Shown here piece after piece: positions 3,590 to 26,998 of a stretch of 34,006 nt of DNA (position 1 is the stretch's first letter; each line of letters opens with the position of its first letter). Under the pieces are notes generated by a model. It did not search any database, was not told the origin of the DNA, and saw only the letters and a program-made list of their open reading frames with translations. Position numbers and translations under genes: made by a program. This DNA comes from a virus (lineage: Duplodnaviria; Heunggongvirae; Uroviricota; Caudoviricetes), in IMG/VR virus record IMGVR_UViG_2529292836_000023. One strand, written 5' to 3'.

Positions 3590-6037
3590 TTAACCGTCAT
3601 GCATCATGCTGGCACGGGCGCGCGCACGTTTATCCCGCTCGTATTTTTCGAGCGCATCCTGTAACTGGCGGTCAAGCTGTGTCCCCGGCGCAGTACCCCC
3701 CGTCAGGCTGATGTGATATTCGTTTTTACTCTGGTCCACATAAGAGCGGCCAGCCGATGCCGTGACCGGCTGATAAGCCTGATAGCCTGCATAAGAGCTG
3801 GTCGCCGGAATATAACCACCGGTGCCATACGTGGCGGCATGAGTTCTGGCGGCGGTCTGGTCAAGTGTGTCTGACTCTTTGTTGATAACACCGAGTTTTT
3901 CCAGTACCCAGTCAATACCACTGCGCAGTTTGTTGAACGCATTAAGCGGCAGCATCAACGCGTCAGCCAGTGCCTGCCCGAACATGACGCCCGTGTCACG
4001 GCAACGGTTCAGGGTGTCCTGGGTGGCTTTGACCGGGGCAATCAGGTTTTTAAACCACTGCCACGCGGCCTGTAACTTTTCACCCAGCCAGTCAAACAGC
4101 GGCTTCAGTGGCGTGAACAGTTCCCCCACCGGCGCAAATGCAGCTTTCAGCCCTTCAACCACACCGCCAAAGAATGCGCTGACAGGCTCCCAGTATTTAC
4201 GGATAAGCAACGCCCCGGCGACAATGGCGGCCACCACGGCCACAACCGGCCAGCTAATCGCCCCGATGGCGGTCATAACAGCACTGCCAACCGTCGTGAA
4301 GACTGCCCCCATTGCGCCTGCTGCCGCGATGATGGCATTGATGCCAGTGATAACCGGCCAGGCTACAAGACCAATGGCACCGATGATGCCAATAAGCGCC
4401 AGCGCGCCACCGACAATGAGGCCGATGGTTGACGCCAGTGATTTGTTTTTCTGGATCCAGCCGTCGAGTTTTAACACATACTTTGTGGCCGTCTGCGTGA
4501 GCTTACGCAGTGCGCCTTCCTGCTGGTCAAACAGGTCTGTCCCCACCGCCTCATAAGCGGACTGAAACTCCTTAAAGTCACCTCCGAGGTTGTCCTGCAT
4601 GATATTTACCAGCTCGGCAGTCTTCCCGTCTGAGGCTTTAAACGCAGCGGTCAGTTTGTCCAGCTTTCCGGTTGAGGCGGCAGTCATCAGCACGGCGGCG
4701 GCTGAGCTGGCCTCCTCCCCGAAAATAGTTTTCATGTATTCAGCCTGCTGGGCAGTACCGAGCCGGTTTTTCTCAAAACTGGCCTGCATTTCTTTCAGAA
4801 TGGTAAATACTGGCCGGGTGTTTCCCTTACTGTCTGAGGTTTTCACGCCAAGCTCTTTGAGTGCATCCCATGCTTTTCCAGTCGGTGCCTGCAGGCGACT
4901 TAACACGGCACGGCTTCCCGTCCCCGCCATTGAGCCTGTGATTTTTGCATCATGCAGCGCCCCGACCATTGCGGCGGTTTCTTCAATGCTGACACCGGCA
5001 TTTTTTGCCACAGGTGCGGCATAGGTCAGCGCATCGCTCATGCCGTCAAAATCGGCGGCGGTTTTGTTCATCGTCATGGAGAGAACATCCCCGATATGAG
5101 CGACCTTATCGTTTGAAAGCTGAAAGGCGGATTTCATCCCCATCAGCAAGGCGGCGTTTTCTTCCATCGTGCGGCGGTTCGCCAGCGCCATATTCAGCGT
5201 GACCGGCGTTGCCGCCTGAATGGCATCAACATCCCCACCGGCTTTCGCAATAATAATCTGCGCACCGGCTGCATCATCCGCCGAGGCTGCGGTATTGTCG
5301 CCGAGCTGGCGCGCCTGCTTGCGTAGTGCAGCCATTTCGGCGGAGTCTTTTGCCACTCCGAGCACGGCCTGCAATTCTGAGTTTTTCTGCGCAAACTCAT
5401 AACCGGGGATCAGCAACTTAACTCCGGCCATCGTTCCCGCCGCCGCAATCCCCACACCGGCAGCGCCCACTGAGGCCATATTTCCGGCCAGTTCCTTTCC
5501 GGCCTGATAACGCTGTTTGACTGCGTTAAGTTTTGCCTGTTGCGCACTGACACGCGCCAGCGCATCACGCTGCCGGTTAAGCTGTGCGGTGGTTTCACTG
5601 ATACGGTTTTTCAGTCCCTGCTCATCATGTGCAAGATTGCGGGTATTAATTCCCACAGCGGCCAGTTCCCGCTGCTGGCGTTTAACGGAATCCGTCAGGC
5701 GGTTATATTTCGCCTGTAAGTCCTCCGCCGCACGCTTTGCGGATTCCAGCACTTTCGCCTGAGCACGGGTCGGACGTTCGGTGTTTTTAAACTGTGTGGC
5801 AAGGGCTTCGGCTTCCTGCCGTGCCTTTTCAAGTGCATGACCAGTCACGGCAAGCTGTGCACTGGTCTTGCGGAATCCCTCAATACGGGATGCGTGACCG
5901 TTCAGCTCGCGCAGTGATTTTTGTGTTTCCCGGATATCCCCCGACAGCGACTTACTCGCTGTACGGATGGATTTAAACGGGCGGGATGCCTGGTCAACAG
6001 CCCTGAGCAATACCTGTAATTTTACATTGTTACTCAT
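3590..6037 (-). CDS. T: Tail tape measure protein gpT
   Basis: 815 aa, same as P2 T; Ala/Gly-rich hydrophobic central segment typical of tape measure proteins. Confidence 0.9.
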   Translation of the reverse strand: MSNNVKLQVLLRAVDQASRPFKSIRTASKSLSGDIRETQKSLRELNGHASRIEGFRKTSAQLAVTGHALEKARQEAEALATQFKNTERPTRAQAKVLESAKRAAEDLQAKYNRLTDSVKRQQRELAAVGINTRNLAHDEQGLKNRISETTAQLNRQRDALARVSAQQAKLNAVKQRYQAGKELAGNMASVGAAGVGIAAAGTMAGVKLLIPGYEFAQKNSELQAVLGVAKDSAEMAALRKQARQLGDNTAASADDAAGAQIIIAKAGGDVDAIQAATPVTLNMALANRRTMEENAALLMGMKSAFQLSNDKVAHIGDVLSMTMNKTAADFDGMSDALTYAAPVAKNAGVSIEETAAMVGALHDAKITGSMAGTGSRAVLSRLQAPTGKAWDALKELGVKTSDSKGNTRPVFTILKEMQASFEKNRLGTAQQAEYMKTIFGEEASSAAAVLMTAASTGKLDKLTAAFKASDGKTAELVNIMQDNLGGDFKEFQSAYEAVGTDLFDQQEGALRKLTQTATKYVLKLDGWIQKNKSLASTIGLIVGGALALIGIIGAIGLVAWPVITGINAIIAAAGAMGAVFTTVGSAVMTAIGAISWPVVAVVAAIVAGALLIRKYWEPVSAFFGGVVEGLKAAFAPVGELFTPLKPLFDWLGEKLQAAWQWFKNLIAPVKATQDTLNRCRDTGVMFGQALADALMLPLNAFNKLRSGIDWVLEKLGVINKESDTLDQTAARTHAATYGTGGYIPATSSYAGYQAYQPVTASAGRSYVDQSKNEYHISLTGGTAPGTQLDRQLQDALEKYERDKRARARASMMHDG

Positions 6038-6513: not shown

Positions 6514-7032
6514 TCACAGGCCGATATTGCGGCGGTGTTGCTCCAGCCGGTCGACGCCGTTCACCTTCTCAATCATGTTGATGGTGTCGATTTCGACCAG
6601 CTCCTTACCGTCCATCGTCAGCCGGAAATAGGTGCAGACCACGGAGATTTTCGACTCGGTGTCTTCTCCCTGTTTCCCCTCGCCGGTGTCGATTTCTTTC
6701 TGACGTCCACGCATGACCACCTCGACGGCCACCGTTTCGCCGGTATCGTCGCGCTGGTAAGAGCCAGCAAAACGAATCGGTACGGCATCCACGCCGGTTG
6801 CGGCGTAAAGCTCCCAGATAACCGAATCCGGGAAGCCCCCGAGCGACCACTCCATTGACAGCGCATCGTCATCAAGGCCGAGGTCTACCGGTGCGCTGCC
6901 GTTCATCCCCGCACCGCGATAGTTTTCGAGCTTACGAGTCAGTTTTGGCAGCGTGACGGACTTTGCAACGCCCTGATAGCTGTAGCCGTTCAGAAAGACG
7001 TTCATTAACTTGAGTTTGCGCGGCATTGCCAT
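6514..7032 (-). CDS. FII: Tail tube protein gpFII
   Basis: 172 aa, same length and position as P2 FII. Confidence 0.9.
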   Translation of the reverse strand: MAMPRKLKLMNVFLNGYSYQGVAKSVTLPKLTRKLENYRGAGMNGSAPVDLGLDDDALSMEWSLGGFPDSVIWELYAATGVDAVPIRFAGSYQRDDTGETVAVEVVMRGRQKEIDTGEGKQGEDTESKISVVCTYFRLTMDGKELVEIDTINMIEKVNGVDRLEQHRRNIGL

Positions 7033-7044
7033 CGGTCAGGCTCC

Positions 7045-8235
7045 TTAATTGCTGTTAACCGAAGTGACCAGATTTGCCAGGTATTTATCGGTAATACGCT
7101 GGCGCAGGGTCAGGTTTTCGAGAGGAGGCACCGGAGTATAGTCGTAGTCGATATACAGTTTTCCGGCCTTGAGGGTTTCCGCATCGTTGGATTCTTCGCT
7201 GAACCAGCAGGTCGCATCCACGATATAGCCGTTTGTTTTCAGTTCACGGAATTTGGCATTAATGCCGTCAACGATGTCGCGAATCAGCGTTGCGGTGATG
7301 GGCTTGTCCACCGCCCACATGTGCGCCTCAGCCATCGTGTCGGCCAGCACCTGCGCGGTACGGGTGTAGTTTTCAAAGAGGAACAGCGGGTCATCAGAGC
7401 AGGTACGGTTACCCCAGAAGCGGAAACCGTCGCGGCGAATCAGCGTAGTGACGCCTGACTCGTTAAGCAGGTCAGCATCGGTGCCGGACTCCTGCAAATC
7501 CCAGAATACAGATGCGCTGATGCCGGTAACACCGTTTACCCCGACGTTGGACAGCGTTTTATGCCAGCCCTGCTCCTGGTCGATTTTAGCGCGCAGACCC
7601 AGCGCACGGGCGGTGGCATACGCGGTGGCGGTGGTGCTGCTGACCGTATCCCATGCGAGGAAATCCGGCCAGATGACCATCAGCTCACGCTGGCTGAAAT
7701 TCTGACGGTAGGCTTTCACCTCGGAAATGGTTTTACAGCCCCATGCGCTGATATACCCGAAAGCGCGCAGCTTCTGACAGACTGATGCCAGTGCAACAGC
7801 CACCTCTTTGGTGTCCAGTCCCGGCACGCCGAGAATACGCGGTTTAACACCGGTTACCGACTCCGCCGCCAGCAGGGCTTTCAGTCCGGTGTACTGACCG
7901 TTTTCGTCGGTGGTGCCGATGATATTGGAAACGGTCTGCGCGAGTTTCGTTTCTTCGTCGTCGCCGGTGCCGTCTTCCACACGCACGACAACGGTGACCG
8001 GTTTTGACTGGTCAGCGATGGCCTGCAGCGACGCCGCCAGCGTGCCTTTTTTACCGGCCTTTGCAATTGCGCTCTGCACATTGGTAATCAGCACAGGTTT
8101 ATTGAGGGGGAAGGTTTCCGCATCCGCATCGCTGGCCGTGCAGACCATGCCGACAATGGCAGTGGATACGGTGGAAATGACGCGGGTGCCGTCGTTAATC
8201 TCCAGCACCTGCACGCCGTGATGATAGTCACTCAT
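7045..8235 (-). CDS. FI: Contractile tail sheath protein gpFI
   Basis: 396 aa, same length and position as P2 FI. Confidence 0.9.
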   Translation of the reverse strand: MSDYHHGVQVLEINDGTRVISTVSTAIVGMVCTASDADAETFPLNKPVLITNVQSAIAKAGKKGTLAASLQAIADQSKPVTVVVRVEDGTGDDEETKLAQTVSNIIGTTDENGQYTGLKALLAAESVTGVKPRILGVPGLDTKEVAVALASVCQKLRAFGYISAWGCKTISEVKAYRQNFSQRELMVIWPDFLAWDTVSSTTATAYATARALGLRAKIDQEQGWHKTLSNVGVNGVTGISASVFWDLQESGTDADLLNESGVTTLIRRDGFRFWGNRTCSDDPLFLFENYTRTAQVLADTMAEAHMWAVDKPITATLIRDIVDGINAKFRELKTNGYIVDATCWFSEESNDAETLKAGKLYIDYDYTPVPPLENLTLRQRITDKYLANLVTSVNSN

Positions 8236-8327
8236 CCGTTTAACTCCGTGGTTAATGGGTGCAACTATTTTCTGTTGTGCAGAGCATGAGACGCTATTTG
8301 ACCTGGCTGGTCAGTGGATGAAACAAC

Positions 8328-8358
8328 AGATAAAGAAAAGGCGGGCAATTCGCCCGCC
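8328..8358 (-). terminator. Intrinsic terminator downstream of the Z/fun-locus cargo gene
   Basis: GC-rich 7-bp stem GGCGGGC/GCCCGCC followed on the minus strand by a U-rich tract (CUUUUCUUUA). Confidence 0.5.
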
Positions 8359-8533
8359 TGTCCTGATTTGTACTCACTCATTTTCCAACTGACTATTTAC
8401 ATAGTCCAAACGCTATCAAATCTGACTGTCTGCTTTGAGCGAGGTGCTGACATCCGCATGAATGTATGGAGCTGCCGCACACTCTAAAAATGATAGAACG
8501 TCTATATATTAATTATCCCTAAGTCCAGTTTTA

Positions 8534-9061
8534 TTAATCAATTTTATTACTTTTACCTGCAACCTTTTTATTATAATGATAATAAGAAATAGCACTAGCA
8601 AAATAGGATTTTGTCATCGATACGAAAAAACCCAACAAATCTGCCATGTTATCAATATCAATATTTGGTTTAGTTTTACTGGCTTTAGTAATCTTCATAT
8701 AGAAGTCCACAAACTTACTTTTTTCTTTATCCGTAATCTGATAATTCAATTGATGACTGATTTTATTTCTTATGCTGTTAAAGTCTTTTATTCTTAAATA
8801 TATTTCATCATAAGGGGGTTTTGCAGGCTCATGTTGTATTAAAGCTATTTTTTGTGAAAATGTGAGTTTTGCATCACCCCAAGCTAACGAAGGATATCTT
8901 AATCCAAGATAATCAGTAATATAATTTTCAAGGCTCAAGTGCGCAGTAAGAAAGGCACCTATGAAGGCAACGTCAACCCCATCAACACGTTCCCATATGC
9001 TTTCATTTTCATCAGTCATACCTGTATACACAGCGGTTGATGCAAGATCTTTCCAGTCCAT
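8534..9061 (-). CDS. Hypothetical cargo protein at the P2 Z/fun position; possible HEPN-like protein (Rx4H motif RNKISH)
   Basis: 175-aa ORF with AAGGA Shine-Dalgarno 6 nt upstream of ATG 9061, in a markedly AT-rich block between conserved FI and G; not recognised as any P2 core gene. Confidence 0.7.
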   Translation of the reverse strand: MDWKDLASTAVYTGMTDENESIWERVDGVDVAFIGAFLTAHLSLENYITDYLGLRYPSLAWGDAKLTFSQKIALIQHEPAKPPYDEIYLRIKDFNSIRNKISHQLNYQITDKEKSKFVDFYMKITKASKTKPNIDIDNMADLLGFFVSMTKSYFASAISYYHYNKKVAGKSNKID

Positions 9062-9450
9062 GTTTTATCCTTTTAAAGGTGAATTTAACGAGTTTAACTT
9101 TATCTCAACTCAATACTTATCTCAAAATTTATGAGTAGAAATAACATCCACAAAAAACTATTAAAGCCCTTTTACCTCTTATTATTGATGAAAATGTACA
9201 TTTTTATAAAGAATGTCGAAGAACCTCCTCAGTGGAACTATCAACTACACATTGCAAGACTAGAGTATGTGCAAACCTTTTGACAAGGTTCTGAAATATT
9301 CATGGTGGCCTTATTATATCAATTTATCTTCACTTTATACATTAACATAGCATGATGTTGATAATGTCCGCTCCTAGCACAGAGCGGACTGTCAGATTAG
9401 GCCTTACTCTGTACTATAGCTATGTTAACTAACACAAGAGATCATATCAC

Positions 9451-9978
9451 TTATTGCGGCATTTCCGGCCATTCAGGATTTGCAGGATCCACACGGCTGA
9501 CCAGAACACTGTAGCGTTCCCATGCTTCCAGTCGGCTACGCTCCTCATCTGTTGCCATGTTCAGCCTGACAGCGCGCTCCAGTGGCTGAATAACGCTTTC
9601 CGCTTCGGAAAGTAACGCGGCCTTTTGTGATTCTGCCTGTTGTTGCTGTTCGTCTGCCGTATAAATCCGCTTAATCACGGCACCATCCTTAAACATCCAT
9701 TTCCCTGAGTCATCAGCACGTCGGTTGGCGGTAATATCAGGAACCTCGACAACGCTAAAACCTTCAGGGTTAAGCGTTGAAGCATCTCTGGTGATGCCGA
9801 CAATTATATTATTCTCGTCGTAAACAATCTTTATCGTGTCTGCCTGAAAATTACTTACTTCCTCATACCAGTTTTTTCCCTCTTCGGACCATAACCAGAT
9901 AACATCAAAATTTTTTGTCAGTTGATATTGGGCAACAGTTTTTGGATTACCCGCAGTAATATTTTTTAAATGCTGCAT
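9451..9978 (-). CDS. G: Tail fibre assembly chaperone gpG
   Basis: 175 aa, same length and position as P2 G, immediately downstream of H. Confidence 0.85.
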
Positions 9979-9981
9979 AAA

Positions 9982-11322
9982 TTACACCTGTGCGACGTTA
10001 TACCATGTGCCATTGATGTATTTTTGTATTGGTCTGAATACTGCGGGGTCATCACCATCGACTTCACCGATAATACCAAGCCCGGTAATTACGTGCCCTG
10101 CTTTCTCATACATCACCCCTTTCTTCATGGTCTGGACAACTCGAGTCCCAAGCCGGATATCGCGTACATAACGGGAATCAAAATTACTATAGTTAGATGG
10201 TGATACCTGCCCGTTAACAGCAAAAGTGATGCTGTTATCTGTATTTCTCTGACTGTAAAAATGCCAGCCTGCATCATCACCTAATTCAGCCACCACAGGA
10301 CGACTTGAGTTTCCCCACAAATTGAATGCGGCTTCCTTCGTGGATGTATTGCTGCTGCTGACCGTGAACTTTTTCCCGCTACCGGCACGTACTTTGGTAC
10401 TTGAGACAATATCACCTGTAACACTCAGGCCATGCCCCATTGACACTCCGCCATTGGCGTTATTGATAGTCAGCGGTCTTAAGCCGTTCCATGTCCCAAA
10501 TTTATCGCCAGAGGCCGTCAGCATTAAATATGTGCTGCCGCCATCATTCCTGATAAAGAAACCATAATTGCCATAAGCAATGCGCAGACCATTAGCACTG
10601 AGTGATGTAATCTCACCTCTTGAACGGAGACCATAAGCGGAGCTGAGTGATAATTCTTCCTGAGCATCAGTATTACCAGTCGCCCAACGAACTACCCCGC
10701 CCTGTACTGTTTCATGCCAGATAGTGTCTCCTTCTCCACCACGAAACTTTCTGAGATATTTTTTGCCGCCTCTTGTGCCTGAACATAAGGCCGTAGACAT
10801 ATAGGCATTCTGGCTTCCACCGTCCTGATTAATCGTTCCGGTCATTGCGTCGCCCTGACGATTCCAGTCACGACGCCAGCCGGGGGAGTAGCCGTCCCCA
10901 TGATTAATGTAAGTGAATTGTGCGCTGGTTGTACCGCCACCGCTTGATGTTGTCGGCGTGGTCACTCGGATAGTGATTGCAGATTTAGTTCCCATGACCT
11001 CGACGACACAACCAGCCAGGTGGATATCACCACATCCGGTATCCGTAATGATTTTGTTATTTGCATATGACCAAGAGCCTTTGCACATCCAGTACGGATG
11101 ATTAAATGCACCACGGGAATCCAGCCATTCAATAAACTGAGCGGTTGTCCAGTTTCCGGCTTCAGTGCTCAAAGCACCGCTATAAGCACGACAGGCACCG
11201 ATATTTTTCGTGAAGGTATCCTTTCCCGGAATATCCGCACCATTCTGATCTTTCTGAAGACGTTTTTCAGCATTGTCATAGGCAGACTTCACCGCTTTGG
11301 TTGCGCCGCGTTTCAGAATCAC
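9982..11322 (-). CDS. H: Tail fibre protein gpH, C-terminal portion (gene interrupted upstream)
   Basis: C-terminus ...GHVITGLGIIGEVDGDDPAVFRPIQKYINGTWYNVAQV and upstream SSSNTSTKEAAFNLWG...AELGDDAGWHFYSQRNTDNS match the P2 H C-terminal region; ORF begins inside the repeat array. Confidence 0.8.
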   Translation of the reverse strand: MILKRGATKAVKSAYDNAEKRLQKDQNGADIPGKDTFTKNIGACRAYSGALSTEAGNWTTAQFIEWLDSRGAFNHPYWMCKGSWSYANNKIITDTGCGDIHLAGCVVEVMGTKSAITIRVTTPTTSSGGGTTSAQFTYINHGDGYSPGWRRDWNRQGDAMTGTINQDGGSQNAYMSTALCSGTRGGKKYLRKFRGGEGDTIWHETVQGGVVRWATGNTDAQEELSLSSAYGLRSRGEITSLSANGLRIAYGNYGFFIRNDGGSTYLMLTASGDKFGTWNGLRPLTINNANGGVSMGHGLSVTGDIVSSTKVRAGSGKKFTVSSSNTSTKEAAFNLWGNSSRPVVAELGDDAGWHFYSQRNTDNSITFAVNGQVSPSNYSNFDSRYVRDIRLGTRVVQTMKKGVMYEKAGHVITGLGIIGEVDGDDPAVFRPIQKYINGTWYNVAQV

Positions 11323-11700
11323 TGTTGGTGCGCTACTGAGCTGGACAAGACCTTTCGCGCGTGTGGCATCCTGTGCAGTGTATTTCCCGTTAGCAAGGTA
11401 TACGCGCTTACCGCCTTTGGCGTTGCGCAGCTTTCAGAATCGCTGTTGGTGCGCTACTGAGCTGGACAAGACCTTTTCGCGCTGTGGTGGCGTCCTGTGC
11501 AGTGTATTTCCCGTTAGCAAGGTCATAGCGCCTTTACCGCTTTCGGGTTGCGGCAGTTCAGACGTGCTGTTGGTGGCGCTACTGAGCTGGACAAGCCTTT
11601 TCGCGCTGTGGTGGCTCCTGGCGTTATTTCCCGTTAGCAAGTCATAGCGCCTTTACCGCTTGGCGTTGCGCAGGTTTCAGACTGTTGGTGCCTCTACTGA
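11297..11700. repeat. Degenerate tandem repeat array (about 3.3 copies of ~120 bp) inside tail fibre gene H
   Basis: Units starting GTTTCAGAATC.CTGTTGGTGCGCTACTGAGCTGGACAAGACCTTTCGCGC... recur with many small indels and substitutions; they encode the repeated P2 H segment (…KGLVQLSSATNSTSE…) on the minus strand. Confidence 0.8.
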
Positions 11701-12226
11701 AACCTTTTGCGGTCAGCGAGGCGTCCGGGTGACGTCGTGACTGTTCGTGCTCTGCAATTTTGTCATCAACGTAATCCTGCGTCGCCATCACCGTTGTGGT
11801 GTCAATGGTCAGCGCCACTGAGGACACACTGCTGACGATGATGACCATGCGGCAGGTCTGCGAACGCCCTGAGCCTTCGGCAAGAGCTGGCTTATAACTT
11901 TCGGCCATGTTCGCCACGGCAATTAACGTTCCAGCATCATCGTACAGGCCAAGCTCACGCATCCAGAAACCGCCCACCTCCGGCGGAATAACCAGCTCTG
12001 CGATAATATAATTACTGTTTCGTTTGTCCTGGCTGATTTTGTTCAGCGCATGCCGCCAGACTTCGTGGATAAGCCCGGTCTGTCCGGCATCCGGGACAGG
12101 CAATTTACCACCGCCATCCCCGACGGCCATCGTGGTAATGTTGACCTTCCGCCCTCCCGGTGCGGTTGCCGCTGCCAGCTTTGCTGCACCGGCAGTGGTG
12201 ATAACGGTTTTGAATTTTGTGCTCAT
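11642..12226 (-). CDS. H: Tail fibre protein gpH, N-terminal portion (frame lost in repeat array)
   Basis: N-terminus MSTKFKTVITTAGAAKLAAATAPGGRKV...GLIHEVWRHALNKISQDKRNSNYIIAELVIPPEVGGFWMRELGLYDD matches P2 H; ORF ends ...DASLTAKGFSRGTNSLKPAQRQAVKAL where P2 continues in frame. Confidence 0.8.
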   Translation of the reverse strand: MSTKFKTVITTAGAAKLAAATAPGGRKVNITTMAVGDGGGKLPVPDAGQTGLIHEVWRHALNKISQDKRNSNYIIAELVIPPEVGGFWMRELGLYDDAGTLIAVANMAESYKPALAEGSGRSQTCRMVIIVSSVSSVALTIDTTTVMATQDYVDDKIAEHEQSRRHPDASLTAKGFSRGTNSLKPAQRQAVKAL

Positions 12227-24087: not shown

Positions 24088-24403
24088 CGCCCGCTTCATG
24101 GGGCGGTTTTAATGCAGTTGCATGATATGGCCTAACGCGTATCAGCCCTGACATAGCAGGATTGGAAAATGCTTAACAGATGCATGCAAAATCATTCAAC
24201 GCACAAATGCGTTATACACAATTAACAACGACTTATCCGGTTGTTTGCTTTTCTAATGAACAATAAAAAAACACTCTTCGTACAATGTATGATCTGAATC
24301 ACAAAACGCAAACAAGAAAGGTGTAAACACATTGATTTTTAAACAAAAATAATCACCATTAAGATTAATCTCACTTTTCACGGCATAACCTATGGGAGAT
24401 AAA

Positions 24404-26998
24404 ATGTCTGAACGTGATGTCACCAAAGCTAAGTTAGCGTTAAAAAAAAGAACAGTTAAAGATTTGGCTGATTATATAAAAATAAAATCAGGAACAACTC
24501 CTGACTATTCGCTATTCCTCGGTGCTGGTGCGTCTGTCACATCGGGAATCAAAACTGGTCAAGAGCTTGTAGAGGAATGGAGAGCTGAAATATATACAAG
24601 ATTATCAAATAAAAAATACTCCGATTCAGAGGAAGCCAAAACATGGTTAGCAACAAACTACCCTGAATGGTATGATCAAAATAATGAGTATTCTTCCCTT
24701 TTCGAAAAAAAATTTGATCTTCCATCTCAACGCAGACGATTTGTTGAACTTCAAGTAGATAAAAAATTACCTTCAATAGGATATGCTTACCTTGTCGAAT
24801 TGTTTGAATCAAAATTTTTTGATACCGTTTTCACAACAAACTTTGACGACTTGATAAATGAAGCATTTTATCAATTTTCTTCGGATAGGCCATTATTATG
24901 CGCACATGACTCATCAATTAAAGGTGTTTCAATCACATCATCCAGACCTAAAATAATAAAACTTCATGGTGACTATCTGTTCGACAGCATAAAAAGCTCC
25001 TTAAAGGAAACAGAGTCATTAGAAGGCAATACGCGTGAGAAACTCACTGAATTCACCAAAGAGTATGGACTAATCTTTGTTGGTTATGCTGGGAATGATA
25101 GCTCCATCATGGATGTAATAAAATACCTTCTAAAACAAGATGACTATCTTAGAAATGGAATATATTGGTGTATAAGAAAAAATGACAATATCTCACCAGA
25201 ACTTTTTAAATTACTTAGTCAAGAAAAAGTTTATTGGGTAGAAATTGATGGCTTTGACGAACTAATGGCCGAATTAGCTTTAGATTTAGGGTGTAGTCTT
25301 TCACTCGGAGGAAATCAAAAATACACAAAAAGAGAAAGAATGATTCAAAACTTCATAAATGATAAATACAATTTATCAACAAATGAAATAATCAACTCTG
25401 ATATATTGAGATTAAAAAGGCAAACACTTACGCATGATATATCATCATTAATCAATGAGCTTTCCCAAAGCGATGTTGATGATCAAAAAATACCTGAAGA
25501 GGACTTTAAAAATTTATTATATATTGACAATCTGATTAGAAGTAAAAACTATTCCAATGCCGAAGCCAGATTAAACACATTAATTAATGATGCAGATAAT
25601 GACAATATAAAATCAAAATATTTACGTCGCCTAATTGAGATTAAGGAAGATCAAAAAGATACGAAATCAGCTTTAGAGTATAGTGATAAATTGATCGCGC
25701 TTGATGAATTCAATATAAATTATGTTTTATCCAGGACAAACATTTTTACAGATGTAAAAGAAAAAGTTAATTACCTTAAGAGCTTATTGGAGAAATTTAC
25801 ATACAGCATCAGTCTTAAAAACCACCTATGCAAAATTGCACTATCATACTTAGAAAATAACAATGAAGAATTAATAAGCTTTAAGGAAATACACGAAATG
25901 CTTGAAAAAAGCATTCATCAAAACAGCAGCCTTGATAATATTGCATGGATGATAAAGTATAATGCGATAAAAACTGAATACCAATCAAGCTATGATAGAA
26001 CCGAATGCAATAAATTACTTTCCGAATTACTGGATAGAATCAAAGAAATCAACCCAATTCACGATACATATTTACACCTATATTCTGAATTCACATGCTC
26101 CTTACAGAAAAAGGATGAGATTCTAACATGTGTAGAGACGCTATCCAACATCTACAAAACATCATCCAAAAACAAAAAAAGAAATATTTTAACATATCTA
26201 ACAAAACTCCATCTGTCATTATTCGAGGTAGACTATAATGAAAAAACACCTCGTTTGATGAAAGATTTTATTGATAAATATGATGGTGATGGTGATATCG
26301 CCAGAATAGCCCCTTTTATCATATTTAAATCAAGATATGAAATCGGTTGTAACAAAGACATTAATACTGGTATTAAACTTGCAAAAGAAGCCATGGATAG
26401 CACTTGGAAAAACAATCAAATAGATAATATTGTTGAAATTCTATTAATTGACAAAAATAACATTCCACTGGTTGAGGAATTCATAGAAAACCTCCCTAGA
26501 GATACTTCAAGCATTCTCTTACTGAAGTTAAAGTCCGACATTTCAACTTTAAAGGGAAATTATAAAGAAGCTATAAATCTCATTGATCAAGCATTTGACG
26601 AAGGGTGGAACTTTAGCGATTACACCATAAGAAAATCTTATATAAATCTCTTGGCAAAGAATTATCATGAAACAATTAAAATTGCCAATGAAAGTTTAGG
26701 GAAAATAAAAAACTACAAGGAGAAAGATGTTCTACTAATTAACAAAGAGGTTGCCAAGAAAAAAGACAATCAAGAAATTACTAAACATGACATCCGCACA
26801 ATTTTATCCCACCACAATTCAAAGGGTTATGTTTCTATGTGTGCATTCTTCCTGCTAGACGAGGAAAGAAACGCCAAAAAACAACTACAATCATTGATAG
26901 AAAAAGATTTCATGAACTATTACAGATTTTCGCTTTGGCCAGCAATCCCTGAAAATGCGCTATTGCAATACAAACCCAACATAAATTTAGCAGCTTAA
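24404..26998 (+). CDS. SIR2-domain protein with long helical C-terminal region; candidate anti-phage NADase effector (family unassigned)
   Basis: ORF opens at 24392 but ATG 24404 has the better Shine-Dalgarno (GGGAGA). Ordered SIR2 signature LFLGAGAS ... TTNFDD ... KLHGD in the N-terminal ~200 aa; no Walker A motif; AT-rich island with its own terminator; occupies the P2 old/tin locus. Confidence 0.85.
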   Translation: MSERDVTKAKLALKKRTVKDLADYIKIKSGTTPDYSLFLGAGASVTSGIKTGQELVEEWRAEIYTRLSNKKYSDSEEAKTWLATNYPEWYDQNNEYSSLFEKKFDLPSQRRRFVELQVDKKLPSIGYAYLVELFESKFFDTVFTTNFDDLINEAFYQFSSDRPLLCAHDSSIKGVSITSSRPKIIKLHGDYLFDSIKSSLKETESLEGNTREKLTEFTKEYGLIFVGYAGNDSSIMDVIKYLLKQDDYLRNGIYWCIRKNDNISPELFKLLSQEKVYWVEIDGFDELMAELALDLGCSLSLGGNQKYTKRERMIQNFINDKYNLSTNEIINSDILRLKRQTLTHDISSLINELSQSDVDDQKIPEEDFKNLLYIDNLIRSKNYSNAEARLNTLINDADNDNIKSKYLRRLIEIKEDQKDTKSALEYSDKLIALDEFNINYVLSRTNIFTDVKEKVNYLKSLLEKFTYSISLKNHLCKIALSYLENNNEELISFKEIHEMLEKSIHQNSSLDNIAWMIKYNAIKTEYQSSYDRTECNKLLSELLDRIKEINPIHDTYLHLYSEFTCSLQKKDEILTCVETLSNIYKTSSKNKKRNILTYLTKLHLSLFEVDYNEKTPRLMKDFIDKYDGDGDIARIAPFIIFKSRYEIGCNKDINTGIKLAKEAMDSTWKNNQIDNIVEILLIDKNNIPLVEEFIENLPRDTSSILLLKLKSDISTLKGNYKEAINLIDQAFDEGWNFSDYTIRKSYINLLAKNYHETIKIANESLGKIKNYKEKDVLLINKEVAKKKDNQEITKHDIRTILSHHNSKGYVSMCAFFLLDEERNAKKQLQSLIEKDFMNYYRFSLWPAIPENALLQYKPNINLAA

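Follow-up and report, generated by a model that had tools for sequence, protein, structure and literature searches.

A candidate abortive-infection gene in the Z/fun slot of a P2-like prophage encodes a predicted solo HEPN protein distantly related to HepS

What is carried by the short AT-rich stretch that separates two conserved tail genes of a P2-like prophage, and what might it do for a lysogen? The question arises in a window of 34,006 nucleotides, the whole of which is a P2-like (Peduovirus) prophage of Escherichia coli. On its minus strand, which holds every feature whose coordinates are given below, the genes run in the order H (tail fibre), G, cargo region, FI and FII, and these names agree with annotated relatives of the prophage. 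The tail fibre assembly gene G (9451..9978) flanks the region upstream and the tail sheath gene FI (7045..8235) downstream, both assigned from their ORFs and from annotated relatives. The tail tube gene FII (6514-7032) is taken from the ORF list. The tail-fibre gene H of the same prophage looks disrupted in the window. A first-pass annotation had reported about 1.1 kb of AT-rich DNA between FI and G, and the drop is readily seen across 8400-9499, where GC content is 0.27-0.41 compared with 0.50-0.62 in FI and FII and about 0.50 in the 3′ half of G.

The limits of this island are narrower than first drawn. The low-GC cargo placed at 8328-9450 is present, but 8236-8453 is P2 backbone, and the cargo between G and FI therefore spans roughly 8454-9450, or about 1 kb. 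By megablast, the segment 8236-8453, hairpin included, is shared by P2 and by 969 of the 5,426 complete E. coli genomes, whereas the full island is found in only 49 complete E. coli genomes and one sequenced phage, vB_EcoM-569R9. About 5% of E. coli genomes with the P2 backbone flank have the gene described below, ETEC O25 strains among them; ATCC 43886 and E2528-C1 are examples of carriers. Variable DNA between the conserved G and the PF promoter and FI is the cargo of the Z/fun slot of P2 (P2 defence hotspot 2). The earlier placement at this position is borne out by gene order, annotated relatives and the P2 record. Its description as a variable anti-phage locus agrees with the literature, in which Vassallo et al. 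2022 (PMC9519451) name the fun locus as a second site enriched for defence genes in P2-like phages. The analysis of Rousset et al. (2022) covered the other P2 hotspot, old/tin, and a 2026 study of P2 and P4 tested only P4 loci.

The resident of this slot in P2 is Fun(Z), which blocks T5 when cloned, according to the annotation of the P2 record. Fun(Z) and the cargo described here occupy the same G-FI slot and are alike in being non-essential lysogenic-conversion cargo. The first-pass annotation implied that the two were equivalent, a suggestion that did not survive comparison with P2: Fun(Z) has 529 aa, is encoded on the strand opposite to FI and is unrelated in sequence to the cargo protein. 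P2 and the window have in common only the flanking backbone at 8236-8453.

The only intact gene in the island is a one-domain cargo gene of 175 aa (8534..9061), co-directional with the late genes G and FI. Both the minus-strand ORF, which starts with ATG, and its Shine-Dalgarno sequence had been annotated correctly. The latter, AAGGA, lies at 9068..9072, six bases 5′ of the ATG, and the longer AAAGGAT is kept in five cassettes from different genera. Comparison with six homologues from different genera gives dN/dS of 0.10-0.18 at dS of 0.6-2.2. The cargo gene is real and under purifying selection.

Relatives of the protein are numerous and nameless. A word-indexed search returned 24 homologue clusters of 59-98% identity, all from Enterobacterales and every one named "hypothetical protein"; the 90%-identity cluster of the cargo protein itself has 306 member sequences. 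An exhaustive profile search covering 1.84 billion representatives yielded 370 proteins at E≤1e-3, 89 of them reaching E≤1e-10; most homologues among the 150 matches listed are 130-220 aa long. PHROG 5483, of unknown function, matches the cargo protein at E 1e-60. Scans of the protein against Pfam and NCBIfam gave no usable match, DUF6548 and FKBP26_C falling far below cut-off. PADLOC-DB 2.0.0, which includes the PD-T4, PD-T7 and PD-lambda systems of Vassallo 2022 and the PDC candidates, returned no family at E up to 10. A literature search found the protein's accession (WP_001735421) in no paper. Since Pfam, NCBIfam and PADLOC have no model for the family, it escapes current annotation pipelines.

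The sequence IRNKISH occupies residues 97-103 of the protein, and the codons R98-N99-K-I-S-H103 (8753..8770, with R98 at 8768-8770 and H103 at 8753-8755) encode the predicted HEPN active-site motif. Catalytic HEPN domains are recognized by an Rx4-6H motif, a polar residue (N, D or H) following the arginine and an acidic residue further upstream (Anantharaman et al. 2013, PMC3710099). R98, N99 and H103 are invariant in 22 of 22 close homologues (59-98% identity). In a family alignment of 66 sequences, consisting of the cargo protein and 65 relatives that are 20-60% identical (only a single one not below 30%), the sole invariant positions are H41, E45 and R98, and N95, N99 and H103 are at least 90% conserved. 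The codons of H41...E45 (8927..8941) belong to the first long helix, and E45 is the second conserved acidic residue upstream of the motif, outside the usual Ex3[KR] context. The first-pass annotation had called the Rx4H motif HEPN-like and at the same time weak evidence, as one that could occur by chance. Only the second half of that judgment needs revision. Because it is conserved through distant relatives, invariant or nearly so in 22 close and 65 distant homologues, Rx4H is a family signature and no chance match, and it comes with the polar asparagine after the arginine and the invariant upstream glutamate.

The predicted structure leads to the same superfamily. A helical HEPN-like bundle had been named as the fold to look for, and the predicted fold of the cargo protein is HEPN, an all-alpha helical bundle in common with solved HEPN domains, preceded at the N-terminus by two short, low-confidence strands. 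Further down the list of fold matches stand HI0074, HepT toxins, sacsin HEPN, AbiA, AbiF, Las1, Cas13b and Csm6. In Foldseek, the best PDB match is HepS (probability 0.97, TM 0.46, with a weak E-value of 0.14); the search of BFVD gave no meaningful viral match. Confident homology to a protein outside defence was not encountered, and the closest solved relative, HepS, is an abortive-infection protein. At the sequence level, family members give scattered weak matches to HEPN_Cthe2314, MAE_28990, RiboL-PSP, Csm6_HEPN and Abi_2. The protein thus resembles the superfamily in its helical bundle, its Rx4-6H motif with a polar residue after the arginine, its upstream acidic residue and its occurrence in Abi, toxin-antitoxin and defence loci (PMC3710099), while it differs in that the acidic residue lies outside Ex3[KR] and that no named Pfam HEPN family is matched above threshold. 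A HEPN domain with a catalytic-type site is very probably what the gene encodes.

The same conservation bears on whether the site could be inert. A HEPN-fold protein of the MtlR/YggD type would be non-catalytic and would bind RNA or protein to regulate genes of the host or the phage. Members of the MtlR group have often lost the Rx4-6H motif (PMC3710099), whereas here the catalytic motif is strictly kept, with R98, N99, H103 and E45 unchanged or almost so even among relatives that are only about 20% identical. The protein has no sequence match to PF05068, and in the contexts examined its homologues are never found in a mannitol operon, the setting being that of mobile elements. A regulator of this kind is distinctly improbable.

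The match to HepS is informative about what a catalytic protein of this size might do. HepS (STM14_3211), encoded by the Salmonella prophage Gifsy-1, is an anticodon nuclease of the solo HEPN type that acts in abortive infection (Sargen et al., Nature 2026, PMC13043305; PDB 9oij/9oik). It is prophage-borne and works alone, partner-less. At rest it forms an inactive tetramer; once the tail-tip protein J of a siphovirus has opened this tetramer, HepS cleaves tRNA in the anticodon loop, its target being tRNA-Thr. R100 and H105 are required for its activity, and N101 touches the anticodon in the authors' model; the same study gathered 393 HepS homologues (PMC13043305). The profile of the close family matches HepS (PDB 9oij) at E 0.015. 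With the broader family profile, hmmsearch gives E 1.2e-6 for HepS and 0.0076 for the HEPN domain of Csm6. Aligned by hhalign against full-length HepS, the sequence of which was taken from an IMG/VR contig, the family scores 94.3% probability (E 9.6e-8, 88 columns), with E45 placed on E48 of HepS and R98, N99 and H103 on R100, N101 and H105. A direct BLASTP comparison of the two proteins gives 24% identity over 72 residues at E 1e-5. On the strength of these profile, hhalign and BLASTP matches, the cargo protein is most probably a distant relative of HepS inside the HEPN superfamily, and no close orthologue of it; as judged by sequence, the homology extends no further than the HEPN core, where identity is about 20%.

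The two proteins are alike in several further respects. Each is a HEPN protein of one domain and about 175-215 aa, in keeping with the standalone format below 250 aa of HepS-like solo HEPN Abi proteins; both are prophage-borne with no conserved partner gene, and both have R-N-x3-H followed by a stretch of the Y-x-I-T-D type, with a glutamate in helix 1. The differences are also considerable: identity is 17-24%, the cargo protein is 39 residues shorter and its N-terminus is different. Their carriers differ as well, the cargo gene occupying a tail-gene slot of a P2-like myovirus and HepS the accessory region of a lambdoid prophage. The tetramer, the J trigger and the tRNA-Thr target are features described for HepS.

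Homologues of the cargo gene are found in diverse surroundings, and their neighbours differ in every context, with no constant partner gene. The Pectobacterium homologue shares its island with a PDC-S31/DUF2971 gene, a reverse transcriptase and, directly upstream, a paralogous HEPN gene of 166 aa (30% identity). A TraC gene is near the Serratia homologue; the Citrobacter homologue is found in a P4-like island with an integrase and AlpA, beside PDC-S31, and that of Enterobacter in a P4-like element with a DUF4238 gene nearby. Among phages, a siphovirus homologue adjoins a lysozyme gene, and in another myovirus the homologue is part of the tail module and adjoins AbiGi. One homologue (L025) occupies P2 hotspot 1, between gpA and the portal gene, together with HicB and FRG genes. 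This distribution, read from gene neighbourhoods, looks as expected for a self-sufficient defence cassette. The changing neighbours therefore argue against a toxin-antitoxin pair of the HEPN-MNT type. Unlike HepT-MntA, neither the cargo gene nor its homologues adjoin an MNT nucleotidyltransferase gene in the window and the contexts examined.

The upstream part of the cassette retains traces of a second gene. Nucleotide homology to a Citrobacter locus (L008) covers 8422-9142 of the window, that is the gene together with about 80 nt before it and about 110 nt after it, and it resumes at 9245-9378. The leader and proximal upstream region (9062..9142) is conserved, being about 80% identical to L008 up to 9142, and contains a TTGAGA-like hexamer at both 9103-9108 and 9120-9125 as a putative promoter element. 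Beyond it, a deletion scar (9143..9244) holds weakly alignable leftovers of an upstream gene body, with about 100 nt corresponding to about 680 nt of L008 (5240-5919). The block 9245-9378 is 83% identical to L008 5106-5239 and comprises the promoter and first codons of a gene of 170 aa, which is intact in Citrobacter and bears an RNWLAH motif. What is left of it in the window is a 20-codon remnant of its 5′ end (9241..9303), reading MNISEPCQKVCTYSSLAMCS before a stop codon; a 19-nt deletion breaks its reading frame and most of the gene body is gone. No remnant of a partner protein beyond this stub was found by tblastn of the upstream DNA. The Citrobacter 170-aa protein has no PDB match and no significant similarity to the cargo family (hhalign 1.2%), and the RNWLAH motif alone suggests that it, too, may be a HEPN protein. 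At some loci, a homologue of the cargo gene is arranged in tandem with the gene of another small protein that has an RNxxxH motif. Given these tandem loci and the remnant in the window, the ancestral unit may have been two genes, and the surviving gene alone could be impaired or deregulated.

The decay of this neighbour gene of the original cassette, together with the apparent disruption of tail-fibre gene H, might suggest that the cargo gene is itself a decaying moron without function. Such a fate is extremely improbable for a gene with an intact reading frame, invariant catalytic-type residues, the low dN/dS given above and a cluster of 306 sequences at 90% identity.

How would the gene be expressed? 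About 390 bp of AT-rich upstream sequence had been proposed to hold its promoter. That DNA does contain a candidate, and it also contains the decayed 5′ remnant of the second gene. The candidate is TGATATAAT (9313..9321), which reads as the extended -10 element (TGnTATAAT) of the remnant gene and belongs to a block that E. coli and Citrobacter share almost unchanged; judged by its sequence, it is the best candidate promoter of the cassette. The number of sigma-70-like matches in the region is about what chance would give (6 found, 5.4 expected), and expression in the lysogen is for that reason assumed.

Downstream of the gene, a 3′ untranslated tail (8415..8533) is conserved. It is about 80% identical in Serratia and Citrobacter, partly kept in Pectobacterium and alignable at the hotspot 1 locus. 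These features bear on the possibility that the cargo protein is the toxin of a toxin-antitoxin module that mainly stabilises the prophage or island, its antitoxin being either unrecognised, for example an RNA in the 3′ tail or 5′ leader, or the lost upstream gene. No conserved small ORF was found in the tail on either strand. As a non-coding or antitoxin RNA, the tail was considered and set aside: its single-sequence fold has a z of -2.8, but the alignment is almost without covariation (covariation term +0.88, with 2 of 14 pairs compensated). Rfam matches over the island are all sub-threshold, namely a snoRNA and isrF, the latter with 14.5 bits where 40 are required, and no tandem repeats of the ToxI type were found. 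Neither MNT nor any other partner gene is conserved across eight contexts, and 49 complete E. coli genomes that lack the upstream gene have intact, near-identical copies of the cargo gene. A toxin-antitoxin module is accordingly an unlikely explanation.

The transcript would meet a terminator beyond the cargo. An intrinsic terminator with a 9-bp stem and T-tract (8329..8359) had been counted as part of the island; the hairpin and U-tract are present, but they are P2 backbone and no part of the cargo. The hairpin itself (8339-8359) has 9 bp, 7 of them G-C pairs, and is followed by TTTTCTTT. It is one of 2 terminator-like matches where 0.4 are expected by chance. A transcript of the cassette can be stopped here before it reaches PF, the late-promoter region of the F operon (8236..8332), whose activator site is placed at about 8304-8332 by homology to the annotated P2 record.

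At the other end of the cassette, 61 nt past the G stop, the upstream edge of cassette homology is marked by a perfect 8-bp hairpin, GTCCGCTC-TGTGCTAG-GAGCGGAC (9366..9389). Only 0.02 such hairpins are expected by chance, and this one occurs in all E. coli copies of the island. It is unrelated to the V-operon terminator of P2, a kinship that was considered. The hairpin has no T-tract, so read-through from G is conceivable. Transcription from the late V-G operon could then supply a HEPN ribonuclease that serves the phage itself in lytic growth, through host shut-off, RNA processing or counter-defence, and the shared orientation with G and FI, unlike that of fun(Z), would also fit. However, only 49 of the 969 E. 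coli genomes with P2 backbone have the gene, its homologues are also found in non-phage islands and in P4-like satellites without a late operon upstream, and the cassette has conserved upstream signals of its own. We consider a phage-serving role very improbable.

The same hairpin fits the consensus of the HP2 half of a dispersed repeat. The full repeat consists of GTCCGCT-YYTCGCTCAM-AGCGGAC, a spacer of about 18 nt and GTCCGCT-YYGTGCCAGA-AGCGGAC. A degenerate HP1 copy, TCAGCACCTCGCTCAAAGCAGAC, lies at the junction of cargo and P2 backbone (8428..8450), and P2 has TCCGCTTCTCGCTCAAAGGAAAC at the matching position. The HEPN gene of Serratia has the motif on either side, and two further copies occur within 12 kb, all of them oriented the same way; in Pectobacterium, one copy stands behind the HEPN gene and another behind the PDC-S31 gene. 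When each species was represented by a single genome, the repeat turned up in at least 120 loci, nearly all in Enterobacterales, and 124 of 127 copies are intergenic. It was rejected as a defence-specific marker, as its neighbours in more than 120 genomes are mostly accessory and not defence genes (LysR, glyoxalase, GNAT, AKR and MFS genes). No Rfam family covers the double hairpin, and a literature search found its sequence in no paper. It is, we conclude, a REP-like repeat that lies between genes in accessory regions. As a hypothesis only, the repeat may aid cassette exchange at the P2 hotspot.

A bolder extension of these observations is rather improbable. The cargo gene would found an unnamed family of solo HEPN effectors with at least 370 cluster representatives, sister to HepS and with a different trigger. 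It would travel as a portable cassette of about 0.8-1 kb made up of promoter, gene or genes and 3′ tail. The repeat, with a relic fixed in the P2 backbone at the hotspot border, would act as a recombination handle and so let such cassettes move among the two P2 hotspots, P4-like satellites, other phages and islets in the chromosome.

The reading that we favour is that the island is a lysogenic-conversion cassette at P2 hotspot 2 and that its solo HEPN ribonuclease probably acts as a prophage-encoded abortive-infection effector; a role in phage defence as such is likely to a similar or slightly higher degree. The protein would be made in the lysogen from the cassette's own promoter, for which TGATATAAT is the best candidate, and would rest as an inactive oligomer. 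Upon infection by another phage, a component of that phage would switch it on. A composite site of R98, N99 and H103, with E45, would then cut RNA without a metal, as expected of the dimeric composite site of HEPN endoribonucleases, the likeliest target by analogy with HepS being tRNA anticodon loops. Translation would stop and the infection would abort. We infer that the lysogen expresses the gene and that its product is an RNase, and likewise which RNA it cuts, what triggers it and that the infection aborts. A mode of action close to that of HepS, with a latent oligomer, a phage-protein trigger and a tRNA target, is possible by analogy but somewhat doubtful.

Solo HEPN Abi proteins, the fun hotspot of P2 and HEPN chemistry are already known. 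This particular family is unnamed and absent from Pfam, NCBIfam and PADLOC. If active, the cargo protein would represent a second, independently evolved one-protein HEPN abortive-infection system on a prophage. Borne by a myovirus at a little-mined hotspot, it would also, if active, offer a compact model for how solo HEPN nucleases are kept silent and switched on. The decayed partner gene and the repeat-bounded edges, in turn, provide material on the swapping of defence cargo between P2, P4 and other elements.

The HEPN cassette is flanked on both sides by a dispersed double-hairpin repeat, with elements at 9366-9389 and 8428-8450 of the window. The repeat is built from a first hairpin (HP1, GTCCGCT-YYTCGCTCAM-AGCGGAC), a spacer of about 18 nt and a second hairpin (HP2, GTCCGCT-YYGTGCCAGA-AGCGGAC). 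Further elements are found at the Serratia locus (4222-4287, 5865-5888, 6621-6648 and 8688-8701), at the Pectobacterium locus (6613-6625 and 9684-9700) and in the annotated P2 record (1935-1957); in the P2 backbone, a relic of the repeat is fixed at the hotspot border. Exact HP1 matches across Enterobacterales genomes number more than 120 at the least, and 124 of 127 HP1 copies are intergenic, neighboring accessory genes (LysR, glyoxalase, GNAT). The double-hairpin repeat is not covered by any Rfam family, and none of the papers searched contains its sequence. It may be a REP-like element, or possibly a recombination handle.

The cassette's 3′ untranslated tail (8415-8533) is conserved across genera at about 80%, roughly equal to the coding sequence, and neither a conserved ORF nor a clear RNA structure was found within it. 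In the adjoining backbone, a hairpin with a perfect 9-bp stem (8339-8359) lies upstream of PF, the late promoter of the F operon. P2, by contrast, has a divergent cargo gene, and its counterpart of this hairpin contains one wobble pair plus a single mismatch. The terminator may be stronger where the cargo is read in the direction of PF, a comparison based on only two sequences.

A 20-codon pseudogene stub of a second small gene, together with that gene's intact predicted promoter (TGATATAAT), occupies 9241-9378. At the Citrobacter locus (5181-5693), this second gene is complete upstream of the HEPN homologue and encodes 170 aa with an RNWLAH motif. The ancestral cassette was probably a two-gene unit. 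The Pectobacterium HEPN gene has a HEPN paralogue of 166 aa just upstream of it (5284-5784, motif RNKFAH), and the two share 30% identity over 95 aa. Tandem arrangements of solo HEPN genes are therefore possible. In the profile search of the family, the HEPN-motif segment matched 7-16 times per protein in three long entries (P0038, P0146 and P0153; 2,278-4,271 aa), which could be repeat proteins or artefacts.

Elsewhere in the prophage, the minus-strand tail-fibre gene H (9982-12226) is split into an N-terminal ORF of 194 aa (11642-12226) and a C-terminal ORF of 446 aa (9982-11322), both on the minus strand, whereas in NZ_CP024257 it is a single 764-aa gene. Between the two ORFs lie about 320 nt of tandem repeats, the repeat region as a whole spanning 11287-11660, with units of about 121-125 nt whose lengths are not multiples of three. 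The split would reflect either a disrupted fibre gene, and hence a defective prophage, or sequencing errors within the repeats. A plus-strand peptidase U32 family gene at the window's left end (1-1362) is probably host chromosome next to the prophage.

The other P2 hotspot, which lies between the portal gene (Q) and the replication gene (A), holds a plus-strand gene (24392-26998) for an 868-aa SIR2-domain protein that matches two PADLOC models, Aga_SIR2/pAgo-associated SIR2 and PDC-S65, as well as Pfam SIR2_2. Counting the HEPN cassette, the prophage therefore carries two candidate defence cargos.
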